Below are positions 7,550-47,838 of a stretch of 64,000 nt of DNA, in pieces. The position numbers and the translations under genes were made by a program. This stretch comes from a candidate division TM6 bacterium GW2011_GWF2_28_16. GTDB lineage: Bacteria; Patescibacteriota; Microgenomatia; UBA1400; PJMF01. The notes under the pieces were generated by a model. The model was not told the DNA's origin. It saw only the letters and a program-made list of their open reading frames with translations, and did no database searches. How positions within the stretch are numbered: the stretch's first letter is position 1; every line of letters starts with the position of its first letter. Location: the NCBI GenBank assembly GCA_001029715.1, contig CP011212.1, positions 67,407 through 131,406 on the forward strand. The letters run 5' to 3'.

Positions 7550-7569
7550 TATTTTCCATAAAATAATGA

Positions 7570-7977: not shown

Positions 7978-8021
7978 AATTTTTTCCTTTTTAATTACTA
8001 AATTAATTTATTATAAATACG

Positions 8022-8030: not shown

Positions 8031-8044
8031 AGTTTAGTCAACTT

Positions 8045-8383: not shown

Positions 8384-8395
8384 ATTTTTTCGTTT

Positions 8396-9180: not shown

Positions 9181-9181
9181 A

Positions 9182-9649: not shown

Positions 9650-9679
9650 TTTATATTTTGATTATAAACCATTTATCTA

Positions 9680-24444: not shown

Positions 24445-24446
24445 AT

Positions 24447-26585: not shown

Positions 26586-26694
26586 GTTTCGAGCCAGAGA
26601 TCGCTTGAATAAATACATTTTTTCACGCGCTCAAATGTCTCTAAACTTAGTTTTCCAAAACGTACTTTATTTAATTAAGCAAATTGAAAAAAAT

Positions 26695-27693
26695 ATGAAA
26701 AAAACAACGGTTCAAGCAGGTAGTGATATCGCTTTTGTTAAGTATTGGGGCAAAAAGGATAAAATCCTACGTTTACCAAGCAATGGTAGTATTTCCATGA
26801 TTTTAGATTCTTTGCAGAGCAAAACTACTGTCGAGTTTTTGCCAAATTTAGCTAAGGATGAGATCATAATAGGTGGCGAAGTTGAAGAGGGAGAGGCTTC
26901 TCGTGCCATTAAACATTTGGACAGAATTAGAACTTTAGCCAAAGAAAAAGGATTGATAGATAAAGATATTTTTGCTAAAGTCGTTTCGGAGAATAATTTT
27001 CCCAAGAGCACTGGTCTTTCTAGCTCTGGTTCTGGTTTTGCTGCTTTGACCATGGCTGCCACTAAGGCTATTGGTTTAGATCTTTCAGAAAAAGAATTGT
27101 CTATTTTAGCCAGGCAAGGATCTGGCTCTGCCTGTCGCTGTGTTTGTGGTGGTTTTGTTGAGTGGTTAGATGGTGAAACTTCTGAAGAATCTTATGCACA
27201 AAGCTTTGCTAAGTCAGAAGATTTTGATATTAGAGATTTAGTGGCGATTGTTTCAGAAGATAAAAAGAATTTAAGCTCAAGTGATGGACATGATTTAGCA
27301 GAAAGCAGTTTGTTTTTTAAGGCTCGTCAAGAAAAAATTGATACCAAGTTAGCAGCTGTCAAAAGAGCAATTTTACAAAAAGACTTTGAAACCCTAGGTG
27401 AAATAGTAGAAGCCGAGGCTTTAGAGTTTCACTCAATTTTATTAACCAGTCAGCCAACTATCTTGTTGTTTTATCCGGGAACGATTGAGGTGATGCAGGC
27501 TGTTCGTCAATTGCGTAAGACTGGTGTGCCAGTTTATTTCACTATTAATACCGGCTTCAATGTCCACATTTTGACTTTACCTCAATATGAGAAACAGGTA
27601 GCTGCTGTTTTGCAAAATTTACCAAGTGTGCAGAAAATTATTATCTCAGGAGCAGGTAATCAGCCAGAATATTTAGAAAAACATTTGTTTTAA
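26695..27693 (+). CDS. mvaD: diphosphomevalonate decarboxylase
   Basis: Shows SDIAFVKYWGKKD, PKSTGLSSSGSGFAAL and GSGSACR. ATG 26695 (MKKTTVQAG..) is preferred; the 46-codon upstream extension in the ORF track has no homology-like content. Confidence 0.85.
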   Translation: MKKTTVQAGSDIAFVKYWGKKDKILRLPSNGSISMILDSLQSKTTVEFLPNLAKDEIIIGGEVEEGEASRAIKHLDRIRTLAKEKGLIDKDIFAKVVSENNFPKSTGLSSSGSGFAALTMAATKAIGLDLSEKELSILARQGSGSACRCVCGGFVEWLDGETSEESYAQSFAKSEDFDIRDLVAIVSEDKKNLSSSDGHDLAESSLFFKARQEKIDTKLAAVKRAILQKDFETLGEIVEAEALEFHSILLTSQPTILLFYPGTIEVMQAVRQLRKTGVPVYFTINTGFNVHILTLPQYEKQVAAVLQNLPSVQKIIISGAGNQPEYLEKHLF

Positions 27694-28109
27694 AAACTTG
27701 GTGTCGAACTGCGACTGGCTTCGTATTGCTTAACTACTTCTTGGCAGTAAATATATTTGCCATATTCAAAAGCTTTTTCAGAAATATTTTGCTCGCCATT
27801 TTCGTCAACTCTGACGGCCTCTTGGACAAATTCTTGAGCAACTCCACCAGCCTCTTTGGCTTTTTCTGTCAAAATCTTAATTTGTGAAACACCATTTTCA
27901 CCTAAATTTTTAAAGTCTTCTTGCTTGAAATCAATTTGATCAAATTCAATTTCTTTATCTTTTTGCCAGGGAAGAGTGATACTTTTTGGGAGGCCTTCTT
28001 CTATTTTGGAAAAAATTTCATTATTAAGCCAACCTTTGTTTTTGGCAAATTTATAGGCAAAAACAACTAGAGCTATGGCGATAATAATGGTAAACAATTT
28101 GCGAAGCAT
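27690..28109 (-). CDS. hypothetical N-terminally anchored protein
   Basis: 139 aa with an N-terminal TM (LFTIIIAIALVVFAY) and no recognisable family. Its start codon lies inside a 9-bp hairpin (28104-28129). Confidence 0.5.
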   Translation of the reverse strand: MLRKLFTIIIAIALVVFAYKFAKNKGWLNNEIFSKIEEGLPKSITLPWQKDKEIEFDQIDFKQEDFKNLGENGVSQIKILTEKAKEAGGVAQEFVQEAVRVDENGEQNISEKAFEYGKYIYCQEVVKQYEASRSSTPSF

Positions 28110-28303: not shown

Positions 28304-29287
28304 TTATAGAAGTAGTAGCAAGAGTGCGCCAACGCCTAGGGCTCCAAGGCCAGCTTTAATGTAGTTCATCCAATCAGCTGGGCCACTTTCAGTAGGAACG
28401 TTGATTGGGCGCACGATGGTGGTTTCACCATTTGCTAATTTGCATTGACTATCTGTAGGATTGACGTCGAGGCGACATTGACCGCTGTAACAAATATGAC
28501 TAATGTTGCTACAGTCAGCATTGGCATTACAAGTTTCGTTGCAGCCAACAGTGGTAATAACGGTGGTAACAGATGGAGTTGGAGTGCTGGTAGCGGTCAC
28601 AGTAGTAGTTGGAGTTACGGTTGTAGTTACAGTAGTGGTTGGAGTAACAGTTGTAGTAACGGTTGGAGTAACAGTTACGGTTGCTTCACAACAAGTTGTG
28701 CTACTAGGATCGGCGACACATTCATCGAGATAATCTTCATCTGCACAGTATTTAACAATGTTTCCATCGCCATCAGTATCTGAAGTAGAAATACAAACAT
28801 AACCATCTTCGCAGTCATCGCTGTTGGTACAGTCTTTTTCACCACAAGAAAGCAAGTTTTCTTCTGGAGCGGTGCAACAAGAGTCAGTGTTTGGATCATC
28901 TATACAGGCTGTTTTATAATCTTCATCTGCACAATATTTATTGCCATTGTCGGCCTCAATACAAATTAAATTACTGCTACAGTCATCGTCACTTTCGCAA
29001 CCACTCAAACCACAGGTAATTTTATCTGGTTCTGTAACTGTAAATTCAAGAGTACAAGTTTGAGTTTTTTCAATATAAGCAGCTGGCTGAGATTGAGGGG
29101 CAGTTGGGGCGACTGGAGTAGTGTCTTGTTTTTGCGTAATTAAGAAAACACTAACTGCGCCACCAACAAAAATTAGTAGACCCAGCAACATAGCGATCAC
29201 TTTAAAATCGCCTTTTTTCTTCAGAGCAGTTTGTCCTTGCTTTGATTTTACGTAGGTCGCTGGTGTTTCAATTTGTTCTATGTTCAT
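28304..29287 (-). CDS. Cys-rich surface protein with N-terminal signal anchor, T/V/P repeat stalk and C-terminal hydrophobic anchor
   Basis: The TM is FKVIAMLLGLLIFVGGAVSVFLI. Two roughly 50-aa modules (CG..(G/D)C..(D/S)DDC.....C......YCADEDY...C..DP.....CC) are followed by (TVTPTTTV)n, a third degenerate module, and the terminal GLGALGVGALLLLLL. Confidence 0.7.
   Translation of the reverse strand: MNIEQIETPATYVKSKQGQTALKKKGDFKVIAMLLGLLIFVGGAVSVFLITQKQDTTPVAPTAPQSQPAAYIEKTQTCTLEFTVTEPDKITCGLSGCESDDDCSSNLICIEADNGNKYCADEDYKTACIDDPNTDSCCTAPEENLLSCGEKDCTNSDDCEDGYVCISTSDTDGDGNIVKYCADEDYLDECVADPSSTTCCEATVTVTPTVTTTVTPTTTVTTTVTPTTTVTATSTPTPSVTTVITTVGCNETCNANADCSNISHICYSGQCRLDVNPTDSQCKLANGETTIVRPINVPTESGPADWMNYIKAGLGALGVGALLLLLL
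28590..28684. repeat. imperfect ~24-nt tandem repeat inside the CDS, encoding (TVTPTTTV)n
   Basis: Repeating units such as ggttggagtaacagttgtagtaac are visible on the plus strand. The wider T/V/P-coding tract spans about 28549-28686. Confidence 0.7.
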
Positions 29288-29291
29288 TATT

Positions 29292-30683
29292 TTAATTCAC
29301 ATTATCTATCATTGTGCTTGGTGAATTATCCACCATTTCCCAAACTTGGCATTCCGTTCCCCAGCAAATACGACCCTGGACAACGTAATCTCCAAAGCTT
29401 GAAATGGTGTAGGAATCAGATACATTTTTAGCAATTGCGCCACTAGTGTCAGTTAGATCTATCCAAGAGCTCATGCCTGGAGCCCAGATTCTAAATTCAT
29501 AATTAAAGTCAACTCCTTGGTTGCCGACAGCAGTGCAACGGAAGCGCACCTCATCTCCGTCCTTGAGACTATCATCATCGTTTGCTTCCATAGTATTGTT
29601 ATTAGCATCTAGCATATCTATGCTGGCACAAACTGGCATAGCCTGGCTTTCACAACAATTGGCAGTGCTTGGATCAGCTGCGCAAAACAATTGATTTTCT
29701 CCTTTGGCACAAATACCAGTCGATTGAGAGTCGACTGTTACTGTTTGACAAGTAAGACCATTTTGACAGTCAGAATTTTGAGTACAACCAATCACTCCGC
29801 AGGCTAAAAGTTCTGGAGGTGTAGTAGGAGTTGGAGTAGGTGTTCTATTTGGAGGATTAGTTGGAGTAGGGGTTGGTGTGGCGCAATCTGAACAATCAGC
29901 TCCAGCATCACCGCATAAAGCATCACAACTTGAGGCACTGCCTATCACCCACCAGCCAGCGCTACATTGGCAACGCATTAAGCCAGATTCTTCACAGTTT
30001 TCGATTACTGAAGTATTTGGATTGTCGCACCAATCTCCGCCCATGGATTGTTCTGTGCACGGATCTTGATCGGTAACGTAACCGCACATGGTATCGCCAT
30101 TGGCGATTATTCTACAGGTAGTACTAACACATGGTCCACCAGCTACGAGTCTATGCAGATTTGGACCGCAGGCCGCCACAGTTGTGGTTGGAGTAACGGT
30201 CGAACCACCCGTGGGTGTACAGGCACCATCAATTACACGATAGCCAGTAATACATCTTCCACTAGTACCATTACAATATGGATCTCCTTCCATACACATC
30301 TCACTGGCTTGTTGGCGGTTGTCTTGATTTTGTCTGCTAAGTATATAACTAGAAAAAACCCCAACTACCAAGAAAAAAACTATAAGTAAGCCAGCCAATT
30401 TATTATTTGATTTCTTTTTCACTTGAAAAGATGGTTTTTGATCAGTTGAAAGTGGATTTTGAATAGAAACAGTTTCAGCACCTGACTTAACTGCCTCTTT
30501 GAGAGGTTCATTATCTGTAATTGTATTACCGCGATATTCTGGTATTTCTGGTTCTTTAGCAAGATCATTCCAAGGGGAATCAATTTTTTCTGGTTCTTTA
30601 ACAAAGTTATCGGAAGAATCCTCTGCCTTGTCTATCTGGCTTTTTTTATATTTAGCTGGTATAAAATCTCTAGGATTATTCAT
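29292..30683 (-). CDS. Cys-rich surface protein (signal anchor, PT-linker, shared Cys module, C-terminal beta-rich domain)
   Basis: About 95 aa of cytoplasmic N-terminus precede the TM LAGLLIVFFLVVGVFSSYIL. Then come a Cys-rich region, a PTPTPTPTNPPNRTPTPTPTTPP linker, and the module CGVIGCTQNSDCQNGLTC...FCAADPSTANCC shared with the neighbouring gene. Confidence 0.7.
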   Translation of the reverse strand: MNNPRDFIPAKYKKSQIDKAEDSSDNFVKEPEKIDSPWNDLAKEPEIPEYRGNTITDNEPLKEAVKSGAETVSIQNPLSTDQKPSFQVKKKSNNKLAGLLIVFFLVVGVFSSYILSRQNQDNRQQASEMCMEGDPYCNGTSGRCITGYRVIDGACTPTGGSTVTPTTTVAACGPNLHRLVAGGPCVSTTCRIIANGDTMCGYVTDQDPCTEQSMGGDWCDNPNTSVIENCEESGLMRCQCSAGWWVIGSASSCDALCGDAGADCSDCATPTPTPTNPPNRTPTPTPTTPPELLACGVIGCTQNSDCQNGLTCQTVTVDSQSTGICAKGENQLFCAADPSTANCCESQAMPVCASIDMLDANNNTMEANDDDSLKDGDEVRFRCTAVGNQGVDFNYEFRIWAPGMSSWIDLTDTSGAIAKNVSDSYTISSFGDYVVQGRICWGTECQVWEMVDNSPSTMIDNVN

Positions 30684-30787: not shown

Positions 30788-31588
30788 ATGAAATTTTTAA
30801 AATTAAATACAAAACAAAGATATTGGCTAGATTTTATTCTTGTGATGACGCAAAAGGAGATAAAGGCAAGGTATAAGAGAACTTTTTTAGGTCTTTTGTG
30901 GGTAATTTTTAATCCATTCTTGCAGATGCTAATAATTGGTTTGATTTTTCAATTTTTTGTTCCTATGCAAATTGAGAATTATTTTCTTTATCTTTTTGCT
31001 GGTCTTTTACCTTGGAATTTCTTTTCAATGGCGCTTTTGCGCGCGACACCTCTTTTAGTGCAGGAAAGATCTTTGATTCAAAAAGCTGCTTTTCCTAGAG
31101 AATTAATGGTTGTGGCAGTGGTCATGGCAAATTTATTTCATACTTTAGTGGCTAGTTCAGTATTTTTGCTATTTTTAGCTTTTCTAAAGACGAGTTTTTT
31201 TGCTGGTGTCCTATTTTTTATATCTAGCTTTTTCTTAATCTTTTTAATACTTATCTTTTTATTATTTTTTACTTTGGCGACTTGTTTAGTTATTTCTGCA
31301 TTATATGTAAAGATAAGAGATTTAATTTTCATTATCCAACTTTCAATTCAATTGCTATTTTATGCTGTGCCAGTTATCTATAGTCTAGAGATGTTACCGG
31401 AATTTTTTAGAAATCTACTTTATCTAAATCCATTGGTTAGCTATATTGAGGTTTTTAGAGCGGCTGCTTTAAATAGTGTTTTCAATTATAAAATGGCAAT
31501 TTATGCCGGTCTTTTTTCCATTTTTTTTCTATTTTTTGCTCTGCAATTTTTTCGAAAAGAAAGCAAAAATTTTGATGATTGGTTTTAA
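30788..31588 (+). CDS. ABC-2 type transporter permease (Wzm/TagG-like)
   Basis: 266 aa with six TM helices. The N-terminal cytoplasmic helix EIKARYKRTFLGLLWVIFNP is typical of ABC-2 polysaccharide/teichoic-acid exporters. Confidence 0.82.
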   Translation: MKFLKLNTKQRYWLDFILVMTQKEIKARYKRTFLGLLWVIFNPFLQMLIIGLIFQFFVPMQIENYFLYLFAGLLPWNFFSMALLRATPLLVQERSLIQKAAFPRELMVVAVVMANLFHTLVASSVFLLFLAFLKTSFFAGVLFFISSFFLIFLILIFLLFFTLATCLVISALYVKIRDLIFIIQLSIQLLFYAVPVIYSLEMLPEFFRNLLYLNPLVSYIEVFRAAALNSVFNYKMAIYAGLFSIFFLFFALQFFRKESKNFDDWF

Positions 31589-31596
31589 ATTTTAAA

Positions 31597-32649
31597 ATGA
31601 AAAACAGTAAAAATAAAAAAATAGCTATAAATATAGAAAACGCTAGTAAACGCTATTTCTTGCGATCTGCAAAAGCTAAGAAAAAAGAAACTTTTTTTGC
31701 CTTAAAAGATATAAATATAAAAATATTTAAGGGAGAAAAAGTAGCTATTCTTGGTGACAATGGGGCTGGCAAGACTACTTTGCTCAAAGTAATGACTGGA
31801 ATAGCAGAACCAACTTGTGGGAAAGTGAATAGTATTGGTAAGCTTGTTTCCTTAATTGATATCACGGCTGGTTTTCATCCTGAGTTTTCAGGTCGTGAAA
31901 ATATTTATTTCAATGGCATTCTTTTAGGAATGAATCTTTCTTCAATTAAAAAATTAGAGCAAGAAATAATTAATTTTTCAGGTATAGAAAAATTTATAGA
32001 TCAAGCTCTTTATACCTATTCTTCAGGTATGGTTTTGCGGCTTGGTTTTTCTATTGCTATTCACAGCGATCCAGATATTTTAATTTTGGATGAGGAGGTG
32101 GTGGTGGGAGATCAGGATTTTCAGAAAAAGGCCTATGATGAAATTGAGAAGATTTTTGCTGAAGGTAAAACCATTGTTGTTTGTAGTCATGTTTTACCTT
32201 TACTGAGTAGACTTTGTGAGCGCTTCATCTGGCTAGATAAAGGCAAAGTAAAAATGGATGGAGGTAAAGAGGTTGTTATTGAATATAAAAAGAATCGAAG
32301 TAAATTGGATATAGAAAAAATTGGCAAGATTAAAAATGAAAAAAAATTTTTTCAATTTCTGCAATCTTTGCCAATCGGAGAGAGGTTTATTGTAGAAGCA
32401 GTCAGTGGCAGTATGGAGCCACTTATCTTAAAGGGCGATGAGGTAAGAGTTGAAAGGTGTTCACTTAAAAATATAAGAGTTGGCAACATAATTGCTTATT
32501 GGAGCGATGAATTTAAAAATATCATTGTTCATAGAATTTATAAGAAAAGCTCTAAGGGGATTTTCTTGACTAGAGGAGATAGTAACTATATTGTAGATGA
32601 GATGCCAGTCACAGAAGATATTTTTTTAGGTAAAGTTATTAATTTTTAA
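31597..32649 (+). CDS. ABC transporter ATP-binding protein (Wzt/TagH-like) fused to a C-terminal S24/S26-superfamily (SipW/Sec11-type) peptidase domain
   Basis: The NBD shows Walker A GDNGAGKTTL, TagH-like AGFHPEFSGRENIY, signature YSSGM and Walker B ILILDE. The C-terminal roughly 95 aa show SGSMEPLILKGDEV, IIVHRIY and TRGDSNYIVDE. No hydrophobic segment lies between the domains. ATG 31597 is preferred over 31579. Confidence 0.8.
   Translation: MKNSKNKKIAINIENASKRYFLRSAKAKKKETFFALKDINIKIFKGEKVAILGDNGAGKTTLLKVMTGIAEPTCGKVNSIGKLVSLIDITAGFHPEFSGRENIYFNGILLGMNLSSIKKLEQEIINFSGIEKFIDQALYTYSSGMVLRLGFSIAIHSDPDILILDEEVVVGDQDFQKKAYDEIEKIFAEGKTIVVCSHVLPLLSRLCERFIWLDKGKVKMDGGKEVVIEYKKNRSKLDIEKIGKIKNEKKFFQFLQSLPIGERFIVEAVSGSMEPLILKGDEVRVERCSLKNIRVGNIIAYWSDEFKNIIVHRIYKKSSKGIFLTRGDSNYIVDEMPVTEDIFLGKVINF
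32350..32646 (+). other. peptidase-like domain of the ABC ATPase (candidate Ser at nt 32410-32412 in SGSMEP, candidate His at 32530-32532 in VHRI)
   Basis: The box order SGSMEP - GD - VHR - GDSN..D matches the conserved boxes B, C, D and E of ER/archaeal-type signal peptidases (S26B). Confidence 0.6.
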
Positions 32650-32934
32650 ATGAGGATAAATATGAAAATATTATATATTCGAGACAATGATCTTTATTTT
32701 AAGGAGGAAGACGGCAAAATATTGGTTTTAAAAAAGAACAAAAAAGAAATTGTGGAATTAAATGAGGTTGGCTCTTTGATTTGGAAAGCTTTGAAGACGA
32801 AGAAGTCTATTGATGCTTTGGTGAAAAAAATAAATTCAGCTTTTGAGGGGGCAGATTCTAAGGAGGTAAAAAAAGATGTTGAGGAGTTTATTCTCAAGTG
32901 TTTAAAAGATTCAATAATAGAAAAAATAAATTAG
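32650..32934 (+). CDS. PqqD-family protein (RiPP recognition element-like)
   Basis: 94 aa with the pattern ..DGKILVLKKNKKEIVELNEVGSLIWKAL..KKSIDALVKKINSAFE....EVKKDVEEFILKCLKDSII. This is the typical PqqD/RRE layout of a beta-strand region followed by a winged helix. Its start abuts the upstream stop. Confidence 0.75.
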   Translation: MRINMKILYIRDNDLYFKEEDGKILVLKKNKKEIVELNEVGSLIWKALKTKKSIDALVKKINSAFEGADSKEVKKDVEEFILKCLKDSIIEKIN

Positions 32935-32938
32935 AGTT

Positions 32939-33922
32939 ATGAAAAAAATTAGCAGACAAGAGTTTGATTATTTAATTAAAAAAAGAAAGCTTGAAGATCC
33001 AAAGAAAATTAAAGCTTTTGAAAAAATACTAAAAGATGAGCGCGGTTATGTTTTCAAAATGCCTAAAAGAGGTTCGAATGTTATTTTAATGGCTTCTGGT
33101 GGACTTGATTCAATGGTTGTTTGGGGAATTTTAATGAAAGAATATGGCTTGAATGTTTATCCGATTACTTTTGACAGAGGTGAAAAAAAAAGAAACAGGG
33201 AATTTGCTGCTTTTAAATATTTTGATAAATTTTATCAGAAAAAATTTCCTAAAAATTATAGAAAATTTTTAGATTTAGACGTAGGACAAGATCAGATTTC
33301 AATAAAAATTGAAGACGGTGTCAAAGATCTACGAGAAGAAACATTATTAAATAATTTTAGAGATGACTTAATGTTTTTTAACCCCTCTTTAGGTGTTTTT
33401 ACTATCTTGCCACTTTTTGCACGTAGTTATGCCATGTATCTAAATGCAATTAAAGGTCTAAAAATTAATACTATTTTTTGTGCCGTCACAGCCAATGATG
33501 GGGAATTAATTGCTCATCAAACCTTAACTTCATTGAGGTCTATTATGTGCAACATGTGTGTTTCAATCAAAGATTATTCTTGGCAGTTTTTGTCAATTTG
33601 TTTAGAGCCAGAAATTAATTCTTTTATAAAGAAATCAGATCTTGTTAAGTGGGGAGAAGATAATAGTTTACCACTAGAAAAATCTTGGAGTTGTTACCAT
33701 GCGAAAAAGTATCAATGTGGTGGAGATAACTGTATTGCTTGTGAAGCGAGAAGAAAAGCATATTTAGAGGCAAAAATAGAAGATAGAACTATTTATAAAA
33801 GCCTTGCAGATCAGGAGATCCTAATTAAAAAAGCGAAAAAAACTTTAAGAAAGTATCTTTCTAGAACAAAAAAGAACTTAATAAACACAGTTAAACGTTT
33901 TTTTGAAGATACGATAAGATAG
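32939..33922 (+). CDS. QueC-like PP-loop ATP pyrophosphatase (divergent, with ~45-aa N-terminal extension)
   Basis: The PP-loop is VILMASGGLDSMVVW, followed by ITFDRGEK (QueC: FDYGQR). The C-terminal four-Cys cluster SCYHAKKYQCGGDNCIACEARR sits at the position of the QueC zinc site. Confidence 0.7.
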   Translation: MKKISRQEFDYLIKKRKLEDPKKIKAFEKILKDERGYVFKMPKRGSNVILMASGGLDSMVVWGILMKEYGLNVYPITFDRGEKKRNREFAAFKYFDKFYQKKFPKNYRKFLDLDVGQDQISIKIEDGVKDLREETLLNNFRDDLMFFNPSLGVFTILPLFARSYAMYLNAIKGLKINTIFCAVTANDGELIAHQTLTSLRSIMCNMCVSIKDYSWQFLSICLEPEINSFIKKSDLVKWGEDNSLPLEKSWSCYHAKKYQCGGDNCIACEARRKAYLEAKIEDRTIYKSLADQEILIKKAKKTLRKYLSRTKKNLINTVKRFFEDTIR

Positions 33923-33964
33923 AACTATCAAGGGGAAATCTAAGAATGCTGTTTAGAACTAAAT

Positions 33965-34033
33965 TTATTCAGCTACTACTAAGATAGCTTTTAGATCAAT
34001 AATTCTAAGTTGAGGTTTTTTATATTTTTGCAT
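33965..34033 (-). CDS. un-called 22-codon ORF MQKYKKPQLRIIDLKAILVVAE; candidate RiPP precursor / leader-like peptide
   Basis: Hand-translated from the minus strand. Y4-x-x-P7-x-L9 matches the YxxPxL leader motif bound by PqqD-like RREs. A TTGACA-17-TAACAT promoter ends 9 nt before the ATG. There is no Shine-Dalgarno, and the ORF is very short. Confidence 0.35.
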   Translation of the reverse strand: MQKYKKPQLRIIDLKAILVVAE

Positions 34034-34042
34034 TGTAATTTA

Positions 34043-34071
34043 ATGTTAGATAATTTTTAAGTTGTTGTCAA
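34043..34071 (-). promoter_or_regulatory. sigma-70-type promoter TTGACA-17 nt-TAACAT upstream of the 22-codon ORF
   Basis: On the minus strand, -35 TTGACA is at 34071-34066 and contains the TGA stop of the methyltransferase gene. The spacer is 17 nt and -10 TAACAT is at 34048-34043. The ATG is at 34033. Confidence 0.45.
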
Positions 34072-34784
34072 CGATTAGATTGCTTTTGAATTATGCCCAG
34101 TCCAGAGCCTAAATAATTTACTTCAATCTTATTTTTGTTTGTTTTTTCTTCCCAAAGTTTCCAGACTCCGTATTTTCCTTCTGGCAAAGTTTCTTTTATA
34201 GAAATATCGTGCAGAAGCATAAGACCTCCTTCATGGAGCATCGGCCAGAAGAGTTTAAAATCTGTTTTTATTCCTTCATAGGAATGGTCTCCGTCTATAT
34301 AGATATATTCATAGCTCATGTTTTTATATTTTTTGGCAAATTTTTGCGTAGTTGTTACAAATAGTTGGATATTATTTTCTAAGCCAAAATTTTTGAAATG
34401 ATCTTTGCCTTCTTGAGTTTTCCAAAAACCTTTTCCGGTCCATGAGCTTTTACCTTCTTTTTTTATTTCATCGCCAAATCCCGCATCAACAAAGTCGACT
34501 TTGCCAAAACCATTGTCATGACAAGCTTGAGCTAGAACAGCTGGTATATATCCATATCGGGATCCAATGCAAAGAATTTTCTTTGCTTTTATTTGTCTGA
34601 GTAGGCCATAGTGAATCCAACCATATCCTAGGTCAGCATTTTTGATATTGGATTCGTGTCCAAATTCATCTGCTTCAAAAAAATTCATTAATTCGGTAAT
34701 TCTTAAATCATTGGAGAGCTTTTTACTTTTTTCTTGCTGATGGAATATTAAATATTTTAAGATTTTTGTTTTGATTCCAAACAT
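34068..34784 (-). CDS. class I SAM-dependent methyltransferase (CmcI / Methyltransf_24-like)
   Basis: Shows ILCIGSRYGYIP (a degenerate G-rich motif I) and YIYIDGDHSYEGIKTDFKLFWPMLHEGGLMLLHDI. Confidence 0.7.
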   Translation of the reverse strand: MFGIKTKILKYLIFHQQEKSKKLSNDLRITELMNFFEADEFGHESNIKNADLGYGWIHYGLLRQIKAKKILCIGSRYGYIPAVLAQACHDNGFGKVDFVDAGFGDEIKKEGKSSWTGKGFWKTQEGKDHFKNFGLENNIQLFVTTTQKFAKKYKNMSYEYIYIDGDHSYEGIKTDFKLFWPMLHEGGLMLLHDISIKETLPEGKYGVWKLWEEKTNKNKIEVNYLGSGLGIIQKQSNR

Positions 34785-34789
34785 AGGTT

Positions 34790-35917
34790 TTAATTCTTTA
34801 AAATTTCGCTAATTTTTTTAATTTTATTATACCAACTATTTTCAATGGCTAATTGTCTAGCCTCTTTTCCATTTTTTTCAATCCAGCTATTTTTTTCAAT
34901 TGTTTCTATATGCTTTTTCCATTCTTGAGCATTTTTTCCTATTTTAATGAATTTTTTGAATTTATTATCAGTTAGTTCTTTTATTTCTGTAGAAATTATT
35001 GGTTTTTCAAAATAAAGATACTCAAAAGTTTTCATTGGATAGCAATTAGCATTAAATGGATAACTGACGTCATAGGGTATTATGCAGAGGTCAAATTGAG
35101 ATATTAATTGAGGAATTTTATCTTTTTTTTGAGATTCAATTTTTTTTACATTGGAGAAAGATAAAAATTTTTTAATTCGTTTTCTTTTATTTTCTTTTAT
35201 TTTTAAGTCTCTTTTAATTGGTCCAATAAAAGTGAAATTAGTTTCTGGCATTAACTTGACTAAATTTATCATTAGATCGTAGTCAATGCGGTCGCTTATG
35301 GCTCCAATAAAACCAACGTTTATTTTCTTCTTCTTTGAGAATTTTATGGGCGATTTTTCAAACATTTGCAAATCAAAGCCCTGAGACACTAAATGAAGCT
35401 TTTTTTTATTATATTTTGCCACTTCTTTTTTTAGGGTCTTTGAATTAACAAAAATATAGTTTGCTTTATCTAAATTTGTTTTATATTTTTTGAAATCAAA
35501 CCAATCAACTATATCTAAGATCAGCTCTCTTTTTTTCAAGTTATGCTTTTCTATTTCCACTGTAAGATCAAAGATCCACTCATATGTTTTTTTATTTATC
35601 GATAGAAAGAAAATAATAAACTCAGTAATAAAATAATTAATTTTGTTATTTAGTTTTGAAAATAAATCTTTTGTAAAGAGAAATTTAATTTTCTTTGGAA
35701 AAAAGTAAAAATATTTATAATAAAAAATGTCATTTTTTTTACTTAATAAAAAGAATTCTTGTTGAAAAAGCTTTTTCCAACTCAAGGAGAAATTTTTTTC
35801 AATAACTAAGACTTTATTATTATTTTGTGTTAAGATCCGAATAGTTTGTAATATGAAATCGCAAATTTCTTGAGGATTTTCATGAGTGGGAACAATAATA
35901 AAACTATTTCTAAGCAT
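34790..35917 (-). CDS. glycosyltransferase, GT-B fold (GT1/GT4-like)
   Basis: The C-terminal half reads INVGFIGAISDRIDYDLMINLVKLMPETNFTFIGPI ... IIPY......NANCYPMKTFEYL...KPIIST. Confidence 0.65.
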   Translation of the reverse strand: MLRNSFIIVPTHENPQEICDFILQTIRILTQNNNKVLVIEKNFSLSWKKLFQQEFFLLSKKNDIFYYKYFYFFPKKIKFLFTKDLFSKLNNKINYFITEFIIFFLSINKKTYEWIFDLTVEIEKHNLKKRELILDIVDWFDFKKYKTNLDKANYIFVNSKTLKKEVAKYNKKKLHLVSQGFDLQMFEKSPIKFSKKKKINVGFIGAISDRIDYDLMINLVKLMPETNFTFIGPIKRDLKIKENKRKRIKKFLSFSNVKKIESQKKDKIPQLISQFDLCIIPYDVSYPFNANCYPMKTFEYLYFEKPIISTEIKELTDNKFKKFIKIGKNAQEWKKHIETIEKNSWIEKNGKEARQLAIENSWYNKIKKISEILKN

Positions 35918-37435
35918 CGACTATATATTAGCAAAGTTTTTGATTTATTTTTTATCAAAAAAAATGCTTTTTCTAAACAAGAAAAAATTTCTATACTTAT
36001 ATCTATTTTGTTTTTAGTTTCAGTTTTCTTCATTCCAAACAATAAATTTTTATTCATGGTTACTGCAACTTACATACTTTCTTTATTTATCGTGAACAAG
36101 TCAATTTATGAAACCGTCTTTTATGCTTTTTTACCACTGAGTTTAGTTTTAGTTGGTCAAGGTTATTCTTATATTGCTATTCCTGGTGAAGCAATAAAAT
36201 CAGAGGGCTATGAAGAGGGAAAAATTTTAAATTATTTTTTTTCTCCATTTATTGTTTTGTTGATTTTAATTAGTTTTTTATTTTTTGTTAATTTAACTCA
36301 AAAACTTTTTAGAAAAAAATCTTTTATTAAATTTAAGCCATTTATTATTTCTTTTTTATTCTTTTTTCTTTTTTCTTTTTTTTCTGCAATTAGCAATGAT
36401 TCTTTTCCAAAATTGTCCTTTCTTTACTTTTTAAATGATTTTCTATTTTTTATTTCTTGTTTTTTTATTGCGCTGTTTATTTCAGATAGCAAGGAAAAAA
36501 CAAATAAAATGAATTTGATTCTATTAAATTTGATAATTTTATCTGTTTTTTTAGGGATGGTTGTGATTTTTCAATTTATAAACAAATCACCCTTAGGAAT
36601 AATAGCTGAAATGAGCCACGAAGTCCCATTTTTTGGAGGTGGAGCAGATGAAGACAGTTCTTTATTTAGACCGATAGGAATTTTTACTCACGCTAATATT
36701 CTGGCTAACTATTTAAGCAATTTATTTTTTTCTATATTTTTATTGAAAGCTTATTTAATAGAAAAAAAAGAATTACTCATTAATAAAAAGTTTATCAATA
36801 TTGGATTGCTTCTCATTTTTATTTCTATATTCTCAACTCTCTCAAGAGCAGTTTATTTAGCTTTGTTTTTATCAGCATTGATTTATGTGTTTATTTTTAG
36901 AAAAGAAATATCCGCAAGCGGTAAGAAAATAGTTAAAAAAATATTGAAAGTTAAATATTTAATTTTTCTTTTACCTTTGATGTGGAATGTAGCTGTAAGA
37001 ATAATTTACAGTTTCAATAGCTTTTATCAAGAGGGAGGGGTTGGAGTTCGGGAAAAACTAACTATAGAGAGCTTAGCTCTTTTAAGAAGAAATTTTTTTT
37101 ATGGAGTGGGAACTGGCATGTTTATCCCATCTTTGTTTAGGGAAAATCCCATTGGAATCATAAGCGAATTTCCGGAGTCAGTTCATAATGGTATTTTATT
37201 AAATTTAATTGAAAATGGGTTTCTTTCTTTTTTCTTCTTTTTGATGGTTTATTTTTTATTTTTCAAAGCTTTAATAGCTTTAAAAGCTAATAAGAAAATC
37301 ATCGTAATTTCTTTTCTAGCAATTTTTTCCCAATTAGTAATAAGTTTCTTTCATCCATTCACAAACACCGTTACTCTATATACTTTTATTATGATTTTGA
37401 TAATATATGATCTATATGCAATTGAAAAAAAATAA
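35870..37435 (+). CDS. O-antigen ligase/polymerase-like (Wzy_C family) membrane protein
   Basis: Polytopic, with LSRAVYLALFLSALIY and ESVHNGILLNLIENGFLSF (a WaaL/Wzy-type loop and motif). The start is uncertain because the ORF overlaps the divergent gene's 5' end. Confidence 0.65.
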   Translation: MRIFMSGNNNKTISKHRLYISKVFDLFFIKKNAFSKQEKISILISILFLVSVFFIPNNKFLFMVTATYILSLFIVNKSIYETVFYAFLPLSLVLVGQGYSYIAIPGEAIKSEGYEEGKILNYFFSPFIVLLILISFLFFVNLTQKLFRKKSFIKFKPFIISFLFFFLFSFFSAISNDSFPKLSFLYFLNDFLFFISCFFIALFISDSKEKTNKMNLILLNLIILSVFLGMVVIFQFINKSPLGIIAEMSHEVPFFGGGADEDSSLFRPIGIFTHANILANYLSNLFFSIFLLKAYLIEKKELLINKKFINIGLLLIFISIFSTLSRAVYLALFLSALIYVFIFRKEISASGKKIVKKILKVKYLIFLLPLMWNVAVRIIYSFNSFYQEGGVGVREKLTIESLALLRRNFFYGVGTGMFIPSLFRENPIGIISEFPESVHNGILLNLIENGFLSFFFFLMVYFLFFKALIALKANKKIIVISFLAIFSQLVISFFHPFTNTVTLYTFIMILIIYDLYAIEKK

Positions 37436-38294
37436 AATTTTAAAGTGGCTAAAGTCTTTTGACAAGATAGATATTATTGGCATTGTTTTCTTTTTTTTGA
37501 TTCTATTTAGTTCTGCATTATTTCTTTTAAGAAGGTCTGAATATGTGTACATTACCATAAGAGTTACCAAAGAAGACAGCCTTCATAATCAATGGTGGGT
37601 TCAGCCGTCTAATTGGTATTTGAAAAATTTAACTGATGGCCTGGAAGATAAAGACCTAATGGGGAAAGTTAATGCGAGATTAGAAAATATGTATTTTTAT
37701 CCAAGAAATGAATCGGTTCAAGATATATTTATAGTTTTAAAATTAGAGGCAACATACAATAAGAGATCAAATCAATATTCATATAAGGGCTTACCTCTTT
37801 TAATGGGCAGCTATCAAAAAATTGAACTAGGAGGAAATTCAATAAGAGGAATGGTTCAAGATCTTAGCTTAGACCCTCCGGTTAGAAAGATGAAATCTTT
37901 TAGGGTTAAAGTCGAGTTAGAGGCTGAAAATAATAGATCTGCTTTTACCAATGCAAATATCGAATATCGTGGAATTGATAATTTTTTGGCAGATCCGATC
38001 AAAGTAGGACTAGTTTCTTATGACAGCGAAAAAGAAGAAATTGTTAAAGTAATTGATGTAAAAAAATCTCCTTCTTATAAAATTTTTATTTCTCCTTTGA
38101 CCAATAAATTAGTCAGTGCCTATGATCCAGATAGACAAAAAGTAGAAATGGAGATGATAGTTAAGCAAGCTGAGGTTTTTGATGGCACTTATTTATACAG
38201 AGAAGATTTGGTAATTGCTTTGGGAGAGGTAATTCCTCTTTATTTTGATTCTCTAACCTTAAACGCAACTGTCACAGGTATAGAGGAGCTCTAG
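37407..38294 (+). CDS. N-terminally anchored protein, DUF4330-like
   Basis: The N-terminus is KWLKSFDKIDIIGIVFFFLILFSSALFLL, followed by a soluble beta-rich domain. The family assignment is tentative. Confidence 0.4.
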   Translation: MIYMQLKKNKILKWLKSFDKIDIIGIVFFFLILFSSALFLLRRSEYVYITIRVTKEDSLHNQWWVQPSNWYLKNLTDGLEDKDLMGKVNARLENMYFYPRNESVQDIFIVLKLEATYNKRSNQYSYKGLPLLMGSYQKIELGGNSIRGMVQDLSLDPPVRKMKSFRVKVELEAENNRSAFTNANIEYRGIDNFLADPIKVGLVSYDSEKEEIVKVIDVKKSPSYKIFISPLTNKLVSAYDPDRQKVEMEMIVKQAEVFDGTYLYREDLVIALGEVIPLYFDSLTLNATVTGIEEL

Positions 38295-38301
38295 AGTTTT
38301 T

Positions 38302-39774
38302 TTATTGGCAATTCCATTTTTCTATTGTTTGTAGCTCGTGCTCCAAAAAACAATTTTCATTTAAAATTTTTCGAACTTCTTCTTTGTTTTTTAAATTATC
38401 TTGATATTCTTTTTCTAGATAAAGTTTTTTTGATTTCAATAGGCTCTCTAAACTACTGAGATTGTTGAGATAAATTCTATTGGTAACTTCGCTATTTTTA
38501 TTTTCATTAGACTTAATATATGTTGAATCATTTTCCATAGTATTAATGCTTAGAGTGTCTAGAAGAATACTTTCTGGAAAATATAAACTTAGCTCATTTC
38601 TTTCTTTGGTGAGATATTCAATTTTTTCTAATCTTTGTTTTGAATAAATACTTTTTAAGTTTGATAAGTTTTGAGGAATCCAAATAATAAACATCAGGAG
38701 AATTATCAAAAAAATATTGTTTTTTTTGATAAATATTTTTTTCACATAAAAAACAAAAAATATGATGTAAAGAATATGCGCTCTTGGAATCAAAACTGAT
38801 ACGTTTGGAAAAATTGTTCCAATTTTATAAATAGATGACAATATTGGAGATAGCAATGAGTAGCTCAAGGTAATTATAAATGGAGTGCTTACTAGCAACG
38901 CTATTTCTTTATTTTTTTTGAGGGTTTTGCTTTTTATGATTTTGGAAGTTATAAAAATTGTTATTAATATGAATATTAAAATTGTTAAAAATTTATTTTT
39001 AAAAATATTAATTCCAATGTTTTCTAAATAAAAACTGCTCAAATTTAAAAGAGTGGGCTTTTTTATCCAATCAATATTATTAAACTGCTGATAATTTTTA
39101 TAAGCACTGATAAGTAAAAATTCAAAAAAATAAATAAGTAGAAAACTTAGATATTGGATTATCTTTTTATTTTTATATAGTAGATAAGAAATTAATGTGA
39201 CCGCTAATACTATAAAACTATAGTCAACATAAATTCCCAGAACTGTTGATAAAATTAGCAAGAATAATGTTTTTTTATTTTTATTATTTAGATAGAGGTC
39301 AAATAAGATAATACTGGTACTACCAATAAAAATTAATAAGCTATACATTCTCAGTTGCCATGATTGTTGAATTATAAGAGGATGAAAACTTATTAAAGTC
39401 GCAAGCAAAACAGCAGAAAAAAAGTCTTTTCTAGTTTTTAATTTATAAAAAGATAAAAATATTATTGCTAGAACTTGAAAAACTAGAGAAGATAAAATTC
39501 TTAAAAATGTTAAATCTCTAGTAAAGAAAAGCAAAAATTTTAGATACAAATAATATCCCCCAGGATGTACATCCTGATTGAAATTAATAGCCATTTCTTT
39601 GAAATTGTATCTTTGAGTAAAAAACAAGGAATATTTTTCATCCAGCCACAGCGGTTGTGTTTTGATCGTGTATAATTTGATTATTATTCCAGACAGAATT
39701 ATAAGAAAAAGAATTATCTTTTCCTTTTTCTGAGGAATGCTATTTATATAAGTTTTAATAGATTTAAGTTTCAT
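38302..39774 (-). CDS. GT-C fold membrane glycosyltransferase (ArnT/PMT, GT39/GT83-like)
   Basis: About 12 TM helices, with the early loop PLWLDEKYSLFF carrying a D-E motif typical of GT-C enzymes. ATG 39774 (MKLKSIKTY..) is preferred over 39828. Confidence 0.6.
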   Translation of the reverse strand: MKLKSIKTYINSIPQKKEKIILFLIILSGIIIKLYTIKTQPLWLDEKYSLFFTQRYNFKEMAINFNQDVHPGGYYLYLKFLLFFTRDLTFLRILSSLVFQVLAIIFLSFYKLKTRKDFFSAVLLATLISFHPLIIQQSWQLRMYSLLIFIGSTSIILFDLYLNNKNKKTLFLLILSTVLGIYVDYSFIVLAVTLISYLLYKNKKIIQYLSFLLIYFFEFLLISAYKNYQQFNNIDWIKKPTLLNLSSFYLENIGINIFKNKFLTILIFILITIFITSKIIKSKTLKKNKEIALLVSTPFIITLSYSLLSPILSSIYKIGTIFPNVSVLIPRAHILYIIFFVFYVKKIFIKKNNIFLIILLMFIIWIPQNLSNLKSIYSKQRLEKIEYLTKERNELSLYFPESILLDTLSINTMENDSTYIKSNENKNSEVTNRIYLNNLSSLESLLKSKKLYLEKEYQDNLKNKEEVRKILNENCFLEHELQTIEKWNCQ

Positions 39775-40678: not shown

Positions 40679-40680
40679 TT

Positions 40681-41841: not shown

Positions 41842-41843
41842 TT

Positions 41844-47835: not shown

Positions 47836-47838
47836 CTT

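Follow-up and report, generated by a model that had tools for sequence, protein, structure and literature searches.

Pqq and mycofactocin are derived from very short precursor peptides, each pathway combining a PqqD-type RiPP recognition element (RRE) with a radical SAM/SPASM partner enzyme. In lasso peptide precursors, the leader carries a YxxPxL motif at positions −17 to −12 (PMC10368454), and the lasso ring is closed by a PP-loop enzyme that resembles asparagine synthetase (PMC13060819, PMC10368454). Other ATP-dependent PP-loop enzymes act on the C-termini of ribosomal peptides: TsrC and ScdTA amidate them, and PesC makes the nitriles of nitrilobacillins/nitrilotides (PMC13060819).

QueC is also a PP-loop enzyme, with a canonical length of approximately 222 aa (PMC13082051). 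The canonical substrate motifs of QueC are YxQxHxxE, VPxRN, and YPDC, and the E. coli enzyme cannot do without Y35, R99, and Y131 (PMC13082051). Reuse of the QueC scaffold for protein modification in phage defence was shown recently: Cap9 (type IV CBASS) and QatC (QatABCD) form amide bonds to proteins in ATP-dependent carboxy-deazaguanylation of protein N-termini, and QatC does so without the canonical QueC motifs (PMC13082051). The WbpG sugar amidotransferases belong to the QueC superfamily as well (PMC13082051).

Herein, we analyzed a QueC-like ORF in a 64-kb window (the whole stretch of Patescibacteria DNA under study). The original prediction took its product for a divergent QueC-like enzyme that is coupled to a PqqD-like gene, lies outside any queuosine context, and acts on a peptide rather than on 7-deazaguanine. 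In public databases, the ORF is labelled 7-cyano-7-deazaguanine synthase. The features of the locus are collected in Table 1, and related loci are given by L numbers.

Table 1. Features of the QueC-like locus (positions within the window)
Feature	Position	Strand	Remarks
ABC-2 type (Wzm-like) permease	30788..31588	+	Pfam ABC2_membrane 1.5e-15
ABC ATPase (Wzt/TagH-like) with C-terminal signal-peptidase-I-like S26 Ser/His domain	31579..32649	+	Pfam ABC_tran 7.6e-20; S26-like domain at ~aa 258–356 (nt 32350–32649), Pfam Peptidase_S24 2.1e-4
PqqD-family RiPP recognition element / peptide chaperone	32650..32934	+	94 aa; Pfam PqqD 1.2e-11
QueC-superfamily PP-loop ATP pyrophosphatase	32939..33922	+	ATG start, 327 aa; N-terminal two-helix extension, basic C-terminal helix
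Candidate precursor peptide gene	33965..34033	-	22 aa, MQKYKKPQLRIIDLKAILVVAE; YxxPxL leader motif, C-terminal Glu
Promoter-like site TTGACA-17-TAACAT	34043..34071	-	Ends 9 nt upstream of the peptide ATG; consensus match only
Methyltransf_24 SAM-dependent methyltransferase	34068..34784	-	Pfam 5e-18; in 15 related loci

RESULTS

The ORF encodes a very divergent QueC homologue

The QueC-like ORF is a true QueC homologue and a very divergent one. Its Pfam QueC match (2.7e-14) reached 53.6 bits, where the gathering score is 22, and hhalign aligned residues 38–288 of the QueC-like profile with canonical QueC at 99.8% probability (E = 6.4e-29). When the structural model was compared with the PDB by Foldseek, the QueC structures 2pg3 and 3bl5 ranked first, hits 3–8 were NcsA and TtuA, and YcfA and LarE appeared further among the hits. 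A PDB sequence search gave no match at E ≤ 1, so that the kinship with QueC is visible by fold or profile comparison only.

The PP-loop (S53-G-G-L-D-S58) and the C-terminal Cys cluster (C252-x7-C260-x4-C265-x2-C268) named in the original prediction are both present and align with QueC. In an alignment of 22 family members, the PP-loop and all four Cys are invariant. The cluster is a variant of the canonical Zn motif C(x)8CxxCxxC in which all four Cys still align, and the conserved Arg following the motif is common to the ORF and canonical QueC. With QueC/ToyM (PF06508 cluster 1), the enzyme thus shares fold, ancestry, the SGGxDS PP-loop, and the C-terminal four-Cys Zn motif, and presumably also a chemistry in which an oxygen is adenylated and a nitrogen then displaces AMP. 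The WbpG-type N-acetyl sugar amidotransferases (PF06508 cluster 5) carry SGGxDSxY and CxxC(x)6CxC in reversed order, a signature that the ORF does not match, its Cys motif being QueC-type and C-terminal.

The protein is approximately 100 aa longer than canonical QueC. About 37–45 aa at the N-terminus lie outside the hhalign alignment and form two helices with pLDDT >90 in the AF2 model, in which residues 289–326 make up a basic C-terminal helix. Both the N-terminal extension of ~45 aa and the basic C-terminal tail described earlier were therefore confirmed.

Substrate motifs of QueC are absent, and no queuosine genes were found nearby

The FDRGEK block (residues 78–83), which had been listed as a further point of likeness to QueC, does align with it, but it occupies the exact site of the essential YxQxHxxE motif, and R80, E82, and K84 stand where Tyr, Gln, and His are expected. 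At the positions of YxQxHxxE, VPxRN, and YPDC, the ORF reads FDRGEKKRNRE, FNPSLG, and DGELIAH, respectively. All three motifs are absent from each of the 22 aligned family members, which keep the PP-loop and the Zn motif, whereas five canonical QueCs placed in the same alignment have all three. The score against the QueC equivalog model TIGR00364 was 35.3 bits, far from the cut-off of 150.3.

The neighbourhood was also searched for partners of QueC. In the 64-kb window, no member of the QueD/PTPS, QueE, QueF, or TGT families was found by Pfam among 58 of the 65 non-overlapping ORFs that reach 90 aa (the scan left aside 10901–11221, 24447–24740, 25596–26585, 26557–27693, 27690–28109, 28304–29287, and 29292–30683), in line with the earlier statement that queD, queE, and queF are not visible here. 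No que/tgt genes were present in any related neighbourhood examined.

The enzyme is coupled to a PqqD-type RRE

The PqqD-like gene that had been placed 4 nt upstream of the QueC-like ORF was confirmed; 4 nt separate its stop codon from the ATG. Its Pfam PqqD score was 45.2 bits (gathering score 23.4), and its best NCBIfam matches were the lasso-peptide PqqD chaperone and PQQ PqqD models, both below cut-off. Conserved PqqD neighbours, proposed as a check, were indeed seen: of the 22 informative loci, 19 have PqqD beside the enzyme or fused with it, and 31 of the 46 long family members carry a C-terminal PqqD fusion. Taken with these fusions, the coupling is far beyond chance. One member is fused to an S24/S26 peptidase.

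The clade of the enzyme comprises at least 249 sequence clusters, so far mostly from Patescibacteria; the locus sample was drawn from one genome scan and 12 contig look-ups, and a look-up of cluster members added hardly any taxonomy. A literature search returned no work joining QueC with PqqD, RiPPs, or an RRE, and nothing relevant on SynChlorMet. The family-wide QueC survey of 2026 makes no mention of a PqqD-linked clade (PMC13082051).

Short peptides with a YxxP motif accompany the enzyme

The candidate peptide gene of the window, which encodes the 22-mer named in the original prediction, is smaller than ordinary gene calls pick up. Homologous short ORFs adjoin the QueC-like gene in 19 loci, yielding 23 peptides, all with Y-x-x-P. 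Peptide HMMs built on one clade matched the peptides of other clades with E values of 1.8e-6 to 2.8e-4, and matched two independent loci with E values of 1.8e-11 and 1.7e-8. Between the window peptide and that of L039 there are four synonymous codons and four conservative changes with the stop codon retained, and the substitutions among the window, L039, and L040 are synonymous or conservative. The QueC-like, peptide, and Methyltransf_24 genes diverge together, with 83–90% nucleotide identity to L039 against 94–99% for most of the flanks. The promoter-like site preceding the peptide gene has the top sigma-70-like score in 30.6–34.9 kb, agreeing with the consensus at 10 of 12 positions, and L039 and L040 have the same two hexamers.

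The C-terminus lies 16–21 residues past the motif Tyr in 18 of the 23 peptides, with the Tyr itself at positions ranging from 3 to 15. Set against the −17 to −12 position of the lasso YxxPxL, this distance indicates that the peptides end at about the processing site of lasso precursors; counted by the lasso ruler (PMC10368454), these 18 of 23 end at core position 0 to +4. As they stop so close to the lasso core start, no room is left for a ring plus a tail. A lasso core of at least ~15 aa with Asp/Glu at positions 7–9 was not found, and the leader motif itself was.

Outside the leader motif, no residue is universal among the peptides, which counts against a peptide model. In the window clade, all five distinct sequences (six loci) end in Glu, preceded by the variable residues VVA, IVS, VEI, ARS, or PSG. 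Across clades, the C-terminal residue is E, S/T, G, P, I, N, K, or Y, and the modified atom is uncertain because of these differences. Most short peptides have Lys eight residues past the motif Pro; L002 has Glu and L009 has Leu at this position.

Two ideas about the peptide were considered and given up. A universal Lys–Glu isopeptide was rejected, since the Lys is absent in L002 and L009 and several peptides have no acidic residue near the C-terminus. A cut by the S26 domain before the conserved Glu (A|E), releasing a product of one to seven residues, would fit the pattern of many peptides, and many C-termini, though not all, follow the S26 small-residue rule (in L040, VEI precedes the terminal E). 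This idea was set aside and kept only as a variant because it misfits L040 (VEI|E) and the clade-B peptides ending in S, T, or G.

A peptidase-bearing transporter and a methyltransferase recur in the cassette

The recurrent partners are an ABC-2 permease, a Methyltransf_24 protein, an S26 domain, which in most cases is joined to the ABC ATPase, and often a PLP decarboxylase. The permease accompanies the QueC-like gene in L001, L002, L003, L006, L007, L009, L010, L011, L039, L041, and L043. The NCBIfam model sigpep_I_arch (TIGR02228) matched residues 268–354 of the ATPase ORF with 69.3 bits (cut-off 51.85), and the S26 catalytic boxes SxSMxP, HR, and KGD(N/S) are invariant in 10 loci. Peptidase-containing ABC transporters (PCATs) have an N-terminal C39 domain. 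In both designs, a leader-type peptidase is fused to the cytoplasmic part of an exporter, which in PCATs couples processing of the peptide to its export; however, C39 sits at the N-terminus of a type-I exporter, whereas the S26 domain of the window sits at the C-terminus of an ABC-2 (Wzm/Wzt-like) ATPase. The permease scored 66 bits with the NCBIfam galactan Wzm model, under its cut-off, and the nearest NCBIfam likeness of the transporter is to glycan exporters of the Wzm/Wzt/TagH type, which again counts against a peptide model. In the window, a large glycan locus lies next to the cassette, and related cassettes often lie within glycan loci.

No PLP decarboxylase was matched by tblastn in 25–45 kb or found among the Pfam-scanned ORFs of the window. 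Most sister loci have one, including the 82%-identical relative L040, and the gene has been lost from the window cassette. The missing decarboxylase, a possible supplier of the amine, is a further point against the peptide model.

PqqD, the peptide, and the S26-type domain occur together and are missing together in L003 and L043. These two distant loci keep the QueC-like gene, Methyltransf_24, a decarboxylase, and ABC-2 but have neither PqqD nor a peptide, so that the family may have, or may have had, a non-peptide substrate. L003 alone joins the QueC-like gene with rSAM/SPASM genes. Fused-type loci show a RiPP context as well: L037 carries a TOMM YcaO (223.5 bits, cut-off 219.25) beside a nitroreductase, and L037 and L035 both have ScmC-like and extra PqqD genes.

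DISCUSSION

The association of the QueC-like enzyme with PqqD, a peptide, an exporter, and a methyltransferase points to a peptide-modifying pathway family, no description of which was found in the literature. The window holds what marks an RRE-dependent RiPP locus, namely an RRE beside the enzyme, a conserved short precursor gene, and a peptidase with an exporter. QueC/ToyM has substrate motifs and que neighbours that the ORF does not; in their place, the ORF has extra N- and C-terminal helices and is coupled to PqqD, the precursor peptide, the peptidase-bearing ABC transporter, and the methyltransferase. That the substrate is a peptide, as the original prediction had it in preference to 7-deazaguanine, is well supported by the loss of the substrate motifs and the low TIGR00364 score, by the adjacency or fusion of PqqD, by the YxxP(x)L-type peptides, and by the co-occurrence of PqqD, peptide, and S26 domain. 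To the reading as a whole, an ATP-using modifying enzyme of a RiPP-like pathway instead of a queuosine enzyme, acting in the manner proposed below, we give an even chance.

The computational results establish the homology of the enzyme, the remodelling of its active site, its conserved gene partnership and fusions, and the peptide family; from these we infer leader binding by the RRE, which atom is modified and by which nucleophile, in what order the steps follow, and what part the exporter plays. The PqqD protein would bind the 22-aa peptide at YKKPQL, as RREs recognize lasso leaders, and this would bring the C-terminal end of the peptide, a fixed 16–21 residues past the motif Tyr, to the catalytic centre of the QueC-like enzyme. 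The PP-loop would adenylate a carboxylate of the peptide, the likeliest target being the α- or γ-carboxylate of the invariant C-terminal Glu22. A nitrogen nucleophile would then displace AMP: with ammonia, the product would be an amide, from which a second round in the manner of QueC could lead on to a nitrile. Alternatively, the PLP decarboxylase that most sister loci have and the window has lost could supply a biogenic amine as the nucleophile. The product may be methylated by Methyltransf_24, trimmed by the signal-peptidase-like domain borne on the ABC ATPase, and exported by the ABC-2 transporter. Overall, the chemistry would be an RRE-guided, ATP-dependent change of a carboxylate at the C-terminal end of the peptide to an amide, a nitrile, or a lactam.

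The proposed chemistry is known from PesC, TsrC, and ScdTA, which make amides or nitriles out of the C-terminal carboxylates of ribosomal peptides. Those enzymes, found in Bacillus-related genera or actinomycetes, are asparagine-synthetase-like and depend on glutamine, whereas the QueC-like ORF has no asparagine-synthase or glutaminase domain by Pfam, comes from Patescibacteria, and is not an enzyme of the nitrilotide type. With PqqA/PqqD/PqqE and MftA/MftB/MftC, the locus shares a peptide of ~20–30 aa with a basic, Pro-containing N-terminal part, a PqqD-type RRE, and chemistry that in this proposal would likewise take place at or near the peptide C-terminal end; the partner enzyme differs, being a radical SAM/SPASM protein there and a PP-loop ATPase here.

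A different role for the peptide is suggested by Cap9 and QatC. In an N-acylation of this kind, the enzyme would adenylate a small-molecule carboxylate (7-carboxy-7-deazaguanine or another) and transfer it to Lys15 or the N-terminus of the RRE-bound peptide. QatC resembles the enzyme of the window in that other residues stand in place of the canonical motifs and both ends of the protein are extended (PMC13082051), most short peptides offer the Lys eight residues past the motif Pro, and weak QatC matches occur around the Zn motif. These matches amount to only 19 bits with NCBIfam (cut-off 280) and 12.8 bits with PADLOC, however, and the PADLOC scan assigned no defence system, the matches to QatC models being negligible. 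QatA, QatB, QatD, CD-NTase, and TGT-like genes are absent from every neighbourhood examined, the cassette has no conserved gene for supplying the carboxylate donor, and L002 and L009 have no such Lys. Cap9 and QatC also serve in defence systems and act on a folded protein with a Gly N-terminus, whereas the window encodes an RRE and a ~22-aa peptide; in the reaction of the window enzyme, the peptide could be either the acid or the amine. We consider such an N-acylation unlikely.

The combination of a PqqD-type RRE, a peptidase, and a PP-loop ATPase with a YxxPxL-type leader mirrors the lasso B1/B2/C machinery (PMC10368454), and sulfotransferase and NTP_transf_5 genes are common to lasso clusters and the fused-type loci. 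This likeness would suit a lasso-like macrolactam, in which the adenylated C-terminal or Glu carboxylate is joined to Lys15 N-ε or to an N-terminus made by the S26 peptidase. The span from Lys to the C-terminus would give rings of 6–11 residues, and no outside amine would be required, consistent with the window having lost its decarboxylase. But the lasso ATPase is asparagine-synthetase-like and its protease is a transglutaminase-like Cys enzyme, where the window has a QueC-like enzyme and an S26 Ser/His domain; neither an asparagine-synthetase-like cyclase nor a transglutaminase-like B2 protease was found in the window scan or the annotated neighbourhoods. Furthermore, the Lys is not universal, no plausible S26 site lies upstream of the hydrophobic stretch to free an N-terminus, and intramolecular bond formation is not known for any QueC-family enzyme. 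Formation of such a ring seems rather improbable.

The substrate might also be a glycan or a small molecule, the peptide having no part as substrate. An amine from the decarboxylase, methylated by Methyltransf_24, would be coupled to a carboxylate, uronic-acid or other, on a surface polymer that a Wzm/Wzt-type transporter exports. In Campylobacter, PLP decarboxylases paired with amide ligases decorate the capsule. The ABC proteins are nearest galactan and teichoic-acid exporters (172 and 168 bits), and besides the glycan locus bordering the cassette in the window, GT, Wzy_C, or Bac_transf genes lie near the cassette in L002, L003, L013, L035, L037, and L041. The loci L043 and L003, which lack PqqD and the peptide, retain Methyltransf_24, a decarboxylase, the QueC-like gene, and ABC-2, and WbpG offers a precedent within the superfamily. 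It leaves PqqD, its 31 fusions, the YxxP peptide, and the peptidase domain unexplained, however; no NCBIfam sugar amidotransferase matched at E ≤ 0.01, and the window cassette has kept the enzyme, PqqD, and the peptide without a decarboxylase. For these reasons, we regard glycan amidation as improbable.

Sulfur insertion into the peptide, giving a thioamide or thiocarboxylate as by TtuA/NcsA, LarE, or YcfA, is brought to mind by the presence of these enzymes among the Foldseek hits, but the only conserved Cys are the four of the QueC-type Zn motif, with no three-Cys Fe–S site and no conserved catalytic Cys elsewhere, which makes Fe–S-dependent thiolation unlikely; as the cassette also has no sulfur-carrier or cysteine desulfurase gene, we find this reading very improbable. 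An ordinary though divergent QueC, making preQ0 for queuosine or for 7-deazaguanine in DNA, has the Pfam match above gathering score and the database annotation in its favour and is hardly credible given the loss of all three substrate motifs, the equivalog score, the length of 327 aa, and the absence of queD, queE, queF, and tgt from the DNA scanned in the window and from related neighbourhoods.

Returning to modification of the peptide's own C-terminal carboxylate, the locus could, somewhat short of an even chance, be the founding case of a new, largely Patescibacteria-specific RiPP class with a QueC-family PP-loop enzyme as its class-defining member. The RRE would hold a leader-only peptide of ~20 residues by its YxxP as a ruler, the C-terminal carboxylate would be converted to a group that is new on peptides for this enzyme family, be it a nitrile by the two-step chemistry of QueC itself, an amine conjugate, or a Lys-to-tail lactam, and the product would leave by an undescribed S26-ATPase/ABC-2 exporter.

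Because public databases name these proteins 7-cyano-7-deazaguanine synthase, pathway reconstructions of candidate-phyla-radiation genomes would wrongly credit them with queuosine/preQ0 synthesis. The RRE- and peptide-tied clade would represent a third, independent reuse of the QueC scaffold. The enzyme is a candidate for a new class-defining enzyme, and as its substrate is encoded in the genome and has only 22 residues, the chemistry is directly testable. Up to 2026, nitriles in RiPPs had been reported to be without precedent, so that a QueC-type route to them would be of biocatalytic interest. For these tiny-genome episymbionts, in which the cassette adjoins surface-glycan genes, the product may matter for the cell envelope or for interaction with the host.

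A QueC homologue lacking the canonical QueC motifs

The QueC-like protein was 100% identical to the hypothetical protein UT13_C0001G0077 of Candidatus Pacebacteria bacterium GW2011_GWF2_38_9. All the features named in the original prediction were present, namely the PP-loop SGGLDS (residues 53-58), the FDRGEK block (residues 78-83), the cysteine cluster C252-x7-C260-x4-C265-x2-C268 and a 4-nt gap after the PqqD gene. Profile-profile comparison of residues 38-288 with five canonical QueCs gave a probability of 99.8% (E 6.4e-29), indicating true homology to QueC; an N-terminal extension precedes the aligned part and a tail follows it. Both additions had been anticipated, and in the AF2 model (pLDDT 86.8) they formed two confident helices and one long helix, respectively. 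The best PDB matches of this model were QueC 2pg3 and 3bl5 (16-17% identity), followed by other PP-loop enzymes: NcsA/TtuA, YcfA, the nitrile synthetase ArtA, TilS, GMP synthase and LarE.

The curated QueC equivalog model scored 35.3 bits on the protein, against a cut-off of 150.3. According to a 2026 family-wide QueC survey, YxQxHxxE, VPxRN and YPDC make up the canonical catalytic signature, and Y35, R99 and Y131 are essential (PMC13082051). When canonical QueCs were aligned jointly with the present family, all three motifs were found in 5 of 5 canonical proteins and each was absent from all 22 aligned family members. Both the PP-loop and the four cysteines of the Zn-type motif were retained in the family; the FDRGEK block of the target is a remnant of YxQxHxxE in which Tyr, Gln and His are substituted. 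Judged from this score and these residues, the protein is not a canonical QueC, and it very probably does not function as an ordinary QueC. No QueD, QueE, QueF or TGT family turned up when 58 of the window's 65 non-overlapping ORFs of 90 aa or more were scanned with Pfam, in line with the earlier failure to see queD, queE or queF in the window.

A word-indexed search returned just 29 relatives. A profile search run exhaustively against 1.84 billion cluster representatives gave 249 hits at E <= 1e-30, 1664 at E <= 1e-10 and 6757 at E <= 1e-3, and the best 150 all scored at least 219 bits. Where named, the records belonged to Pacebacteria, Paceibacterota, Microgenomatus or "Patescibacteria group"; some MAGs bearing the family were deposited under a Gammaproteobacteria label. 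NCBIfam held no model covering the family. Approximately 45 of the top 150 members measured 390-480 aa, and among 46 such long members a C-terminal PqqD domain was found in 31 and an S24/S26 peptidase domain in one. Another of the 46, the 481-aa family protein P0052, carried a Ham1 (ITPase-like) fusion in place of PqqD. Among the loci L019, L021, L025, L026, L027, L030 and L033, the alphaproteobacterial ones may correspond to "cluster 4" of PMC13082051, which is PfkB-linked.

A cassette conserved across related loci

The QueC-like gene was the last of four consecutive plus-strand genes that overlapped or lay only a few bases apart, and three minus-strand genes converged on it. The C-terminal ~100 residues of the ABC ATPase resembled archaeal/ER-type signal peptidase I (TIGR02228, 69.3 bits; cut-off 51.85), an S26 (Ser/His signal-peptidase-type) domain.

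Genes of the cassette in the window
Feature	Coordinates	Strand	Remark
ABC-2 permease	30788-31588	+	
ABC ATPase	31579-32649	+	
PqqD protein	32650-32934	+	94 aa
QueC-like protein (target)	32939-33922	+	327 aa
Candidate peptide gene	33965-34033	-	22 codons, encodes MQKYKKPQLRIIDLKAILVVAE; converges on target
Methyltransf_24 methyltransferase	34068-34784	-	converges on target
GT1 glycosyltransferase	34790-35917	-	converges on target

We compared 24 distinct related loci (L004 and L036 are near-duplicates of L003 and L035, respectively). PqqD was next to or fused with the enzyme in 19 loci, and two further contigs were too short to tell. In 11 loci the ABC ATPase carried the S26-type domain as a fusion; L012 and L037 encoded it as a separate protein, and L015 gave a partial match. 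At 3323-4564 of L035, which also encodes two QueC-PqqD fusions, an NTP_transf_5 protein carried a signal-peptidase-I-like domain at its N-terminus (TIGR02228, 49.3 bits), another mode of S26 attachment in these clusters. The SxSMxP, HR and KGD(N/S) boxes were invariant across 10 aligned loci, as would be expected of an active Ser/His peptidase. Methyltransf_24 was found in 15 related loci and a PLP-dependent decarboxylase in 12, either group II (closest to histidine decarboxylase or MfnA, below cut-offs) or Orn/DAP. The decarboxylase was absent from the window (34784-34790) and L039 and present in the 82%-identical relative L040, where it lies at 3751-4992, flanked by Methyltransf_24 and the GT1 gene; the window/L039 lineage has thus recently lost it. 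The fused-type loci look like typical RiPP (ribosomal peptide) clusters. L037 has a TOMM-type YcaO above the curated cut-off, together with a nitroreductase, a ScmC-like gene and two more PqqD genes, and a called gene of 46 aa adjoins the enzyme.

Several other observations concern the surroundings. At the locus of family protein P0008, a called 37-aa gene (4221-4334) overlaps the end of the QueC-like gene and is followed by a FemAB/Acetyltransf_6-like protein (4347-5300), which may be an aminoacyl-tRNA-dependent transferase, then by a decarboxylase and Methyltransf_24. Two clade-B loci encode, beside the QueC-like gene, a ~920-970-aa protein with PQQ_2/beta-propeller and DUF5060 matches (L002, 2578-5481; L042, 2709-5468). 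In the window, the cassette is followed by a large cell-surface glycan locus (34790-50139) with GT1, two Wzy_C, two GT2, an epimerase, WecG/TagA, a GFO oxidoreductase and a DegT aminotransferase; GT, Wzy_C or Bac_transf genes tend to stand near related cassettes too. Directly upstream of the cassette lie two Cys-rich proteins, at 28304-29287(-) and 29292-30683(-), with linkers rich in Thr and Pro and one hydrophobic segment; their L001 and L039 counterparts keep their position and have no precomputed Pfam hit. Farther away were a complete-looking mevalonate pathway block (21100-27693: HMG-CoA reductase, HMG-CoA synthase-like protein, thiolase, GHMP kinase), whose last ORFs (25596-27693) correspond to genes annotated in L001 and L039 as GHMP kinase and diphosphomevalonate decarboxylase; seven small tandem ORFs of 112-155 aa (7136-10099(-)), all matching Pfam T4SS_pilin PF18895; and a TrwB/HerA-like ATPase (57678-60020).

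A candidate precursor peptide

In 19 loci, short ORFs with a Y-x-x-P motif, usually K-Y-x-[KA]-P-x-[LV], lay no more than ~250 nt from the gene for the QueC-like enzyme or for PqqD, giving 23 peptides. When HMMs built from single clades were searched against a six-frame database of 431,000 residues, the best non-training matches were the peptides of other clades (E 1.8e-6, 1.5e-5 and 2.8e-4). In each of two further, independent loci, the full HMM gave one significant match, directly adjoining the enzyme (E 1.8e-11 and 1.7e-8). The L039 ORF has the same length and stop codon as that of the window, from which it differs by four synonymous codons and four conservative replacements. These three lines of evidence support a single homologous peptide family. 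A consensus promoter-like site, TTGACA-17-TAACAT, stops 9 nt short of the peptide ATG; it was the top such match within 4.3 kb, and both hexamers were unchanged in L039 and L040.

YxxPxL is the recognition motif of lasso leaders, where it occupies positions -17 to -12 (PMC10368454). The position of the Tyr varied from 3 to 15, whereas its distance to the C-terminus was 16-21 residues in 18 of the 23 peptides, which are therefore essentially "leader-only"; their C-terminus falls where lasso precursors are processed. In the window clade, all five distinct sequences (six loci) ended in Glu, with the three preceding residues variable, and in other clades the last residue was S/T, G, P, I, N, K or Y. 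The C-terminal carboxylate was the only carboxylate common to every peptide. L015 has two tandem YxxP gene pairs, 352-571(+) and 7688-7919(-), each with a short and a long form, which suggests two precursor subtypes; the long forms share a (D/E)LLxAE-like motif.

Joint absence and joint divergence

The distant loci L003 and L043 (34-35% identity) retained the QueC-like gene, Methyltransf_24, the decarboxylase and the ABC-2 transporter; PqqD, the YxxP peptide and the S26 domain were missing together, linking these three to one another. The same loci give a warning that the deeper family may act on another substrate. Nucleotide identity between the window and L039 was 94-99% across most flanking genes but only 83-90% in precisely the stretch (33000-34800) occupied by the QueC-like and peptide genes and Methyltransf_24, a local divergence or recombination hot spot limited to these three genes, as expected of a co-evolving unit.

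Proposed reaction and novelty

Considering the PqqD linkage, the YxxP peptides and the missing QueC motifs, the peptide substrate proposed originally is the best-supported reading, with the target as a peptide-modifying enzyme guided by a PqqD-type RiPP recognition element (RRE). To our knowledge, every relative characterised so far activates a carboxylate or carbonyl oxygen by adenylation and then swaps in nitrogen or sulfur. Because of this chemistry, the sole shared carboxylate and the fixed spacing that would place the C-terminus at the enzyme, we propose that the carboxylate at the C-terminal end of the peptide (Glu22 in the window) would be adenylated. Since the family has no conserved cysteines for sulfur chemistry and Pfam detected no glutaminase domain in the target, capture would be by ammonia or an amine, and a QueC-like second round might yield a nitrile.

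N-acylation of the peptide is an unlikely alternative reaction; formation of an intramolecular lactam and amidation of a glycan or small molecule instead of the peptide are each somewhat less probable still. Sulfur insertion, against which the lack of suitable cysteines speaks, is highly improbable.

Amidation by the RRE-guided enzyme proposed here would have counterparts: asparagine-synthetase-like TsrC and ScdTA amidate peptide C-termini, and the similarly asparagine-synthetase-like PesC converts a peptide C-terminus to a nitrile, RiPP nitriles having been called unprecedented until that 2026 report (PMC13060819). The QueC-family proteins Cap9 and QatC form amides on proteins, and for none of the ten clusters analysed in the family-wide survey were PqqD, peptides or Patescibacteria mentioned (PMC13082051). 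In the literature searched, no paper joined QueC to PqqD, RREs or RiPPs. The types of parts, namely RRE, precursor, PP-loop ATPase, peptidase and exporter, are already known; what is new, as far as can be told, is the enzyme family used, the leader-only form of the peptide and the S26-on-ABC-2 architecture.
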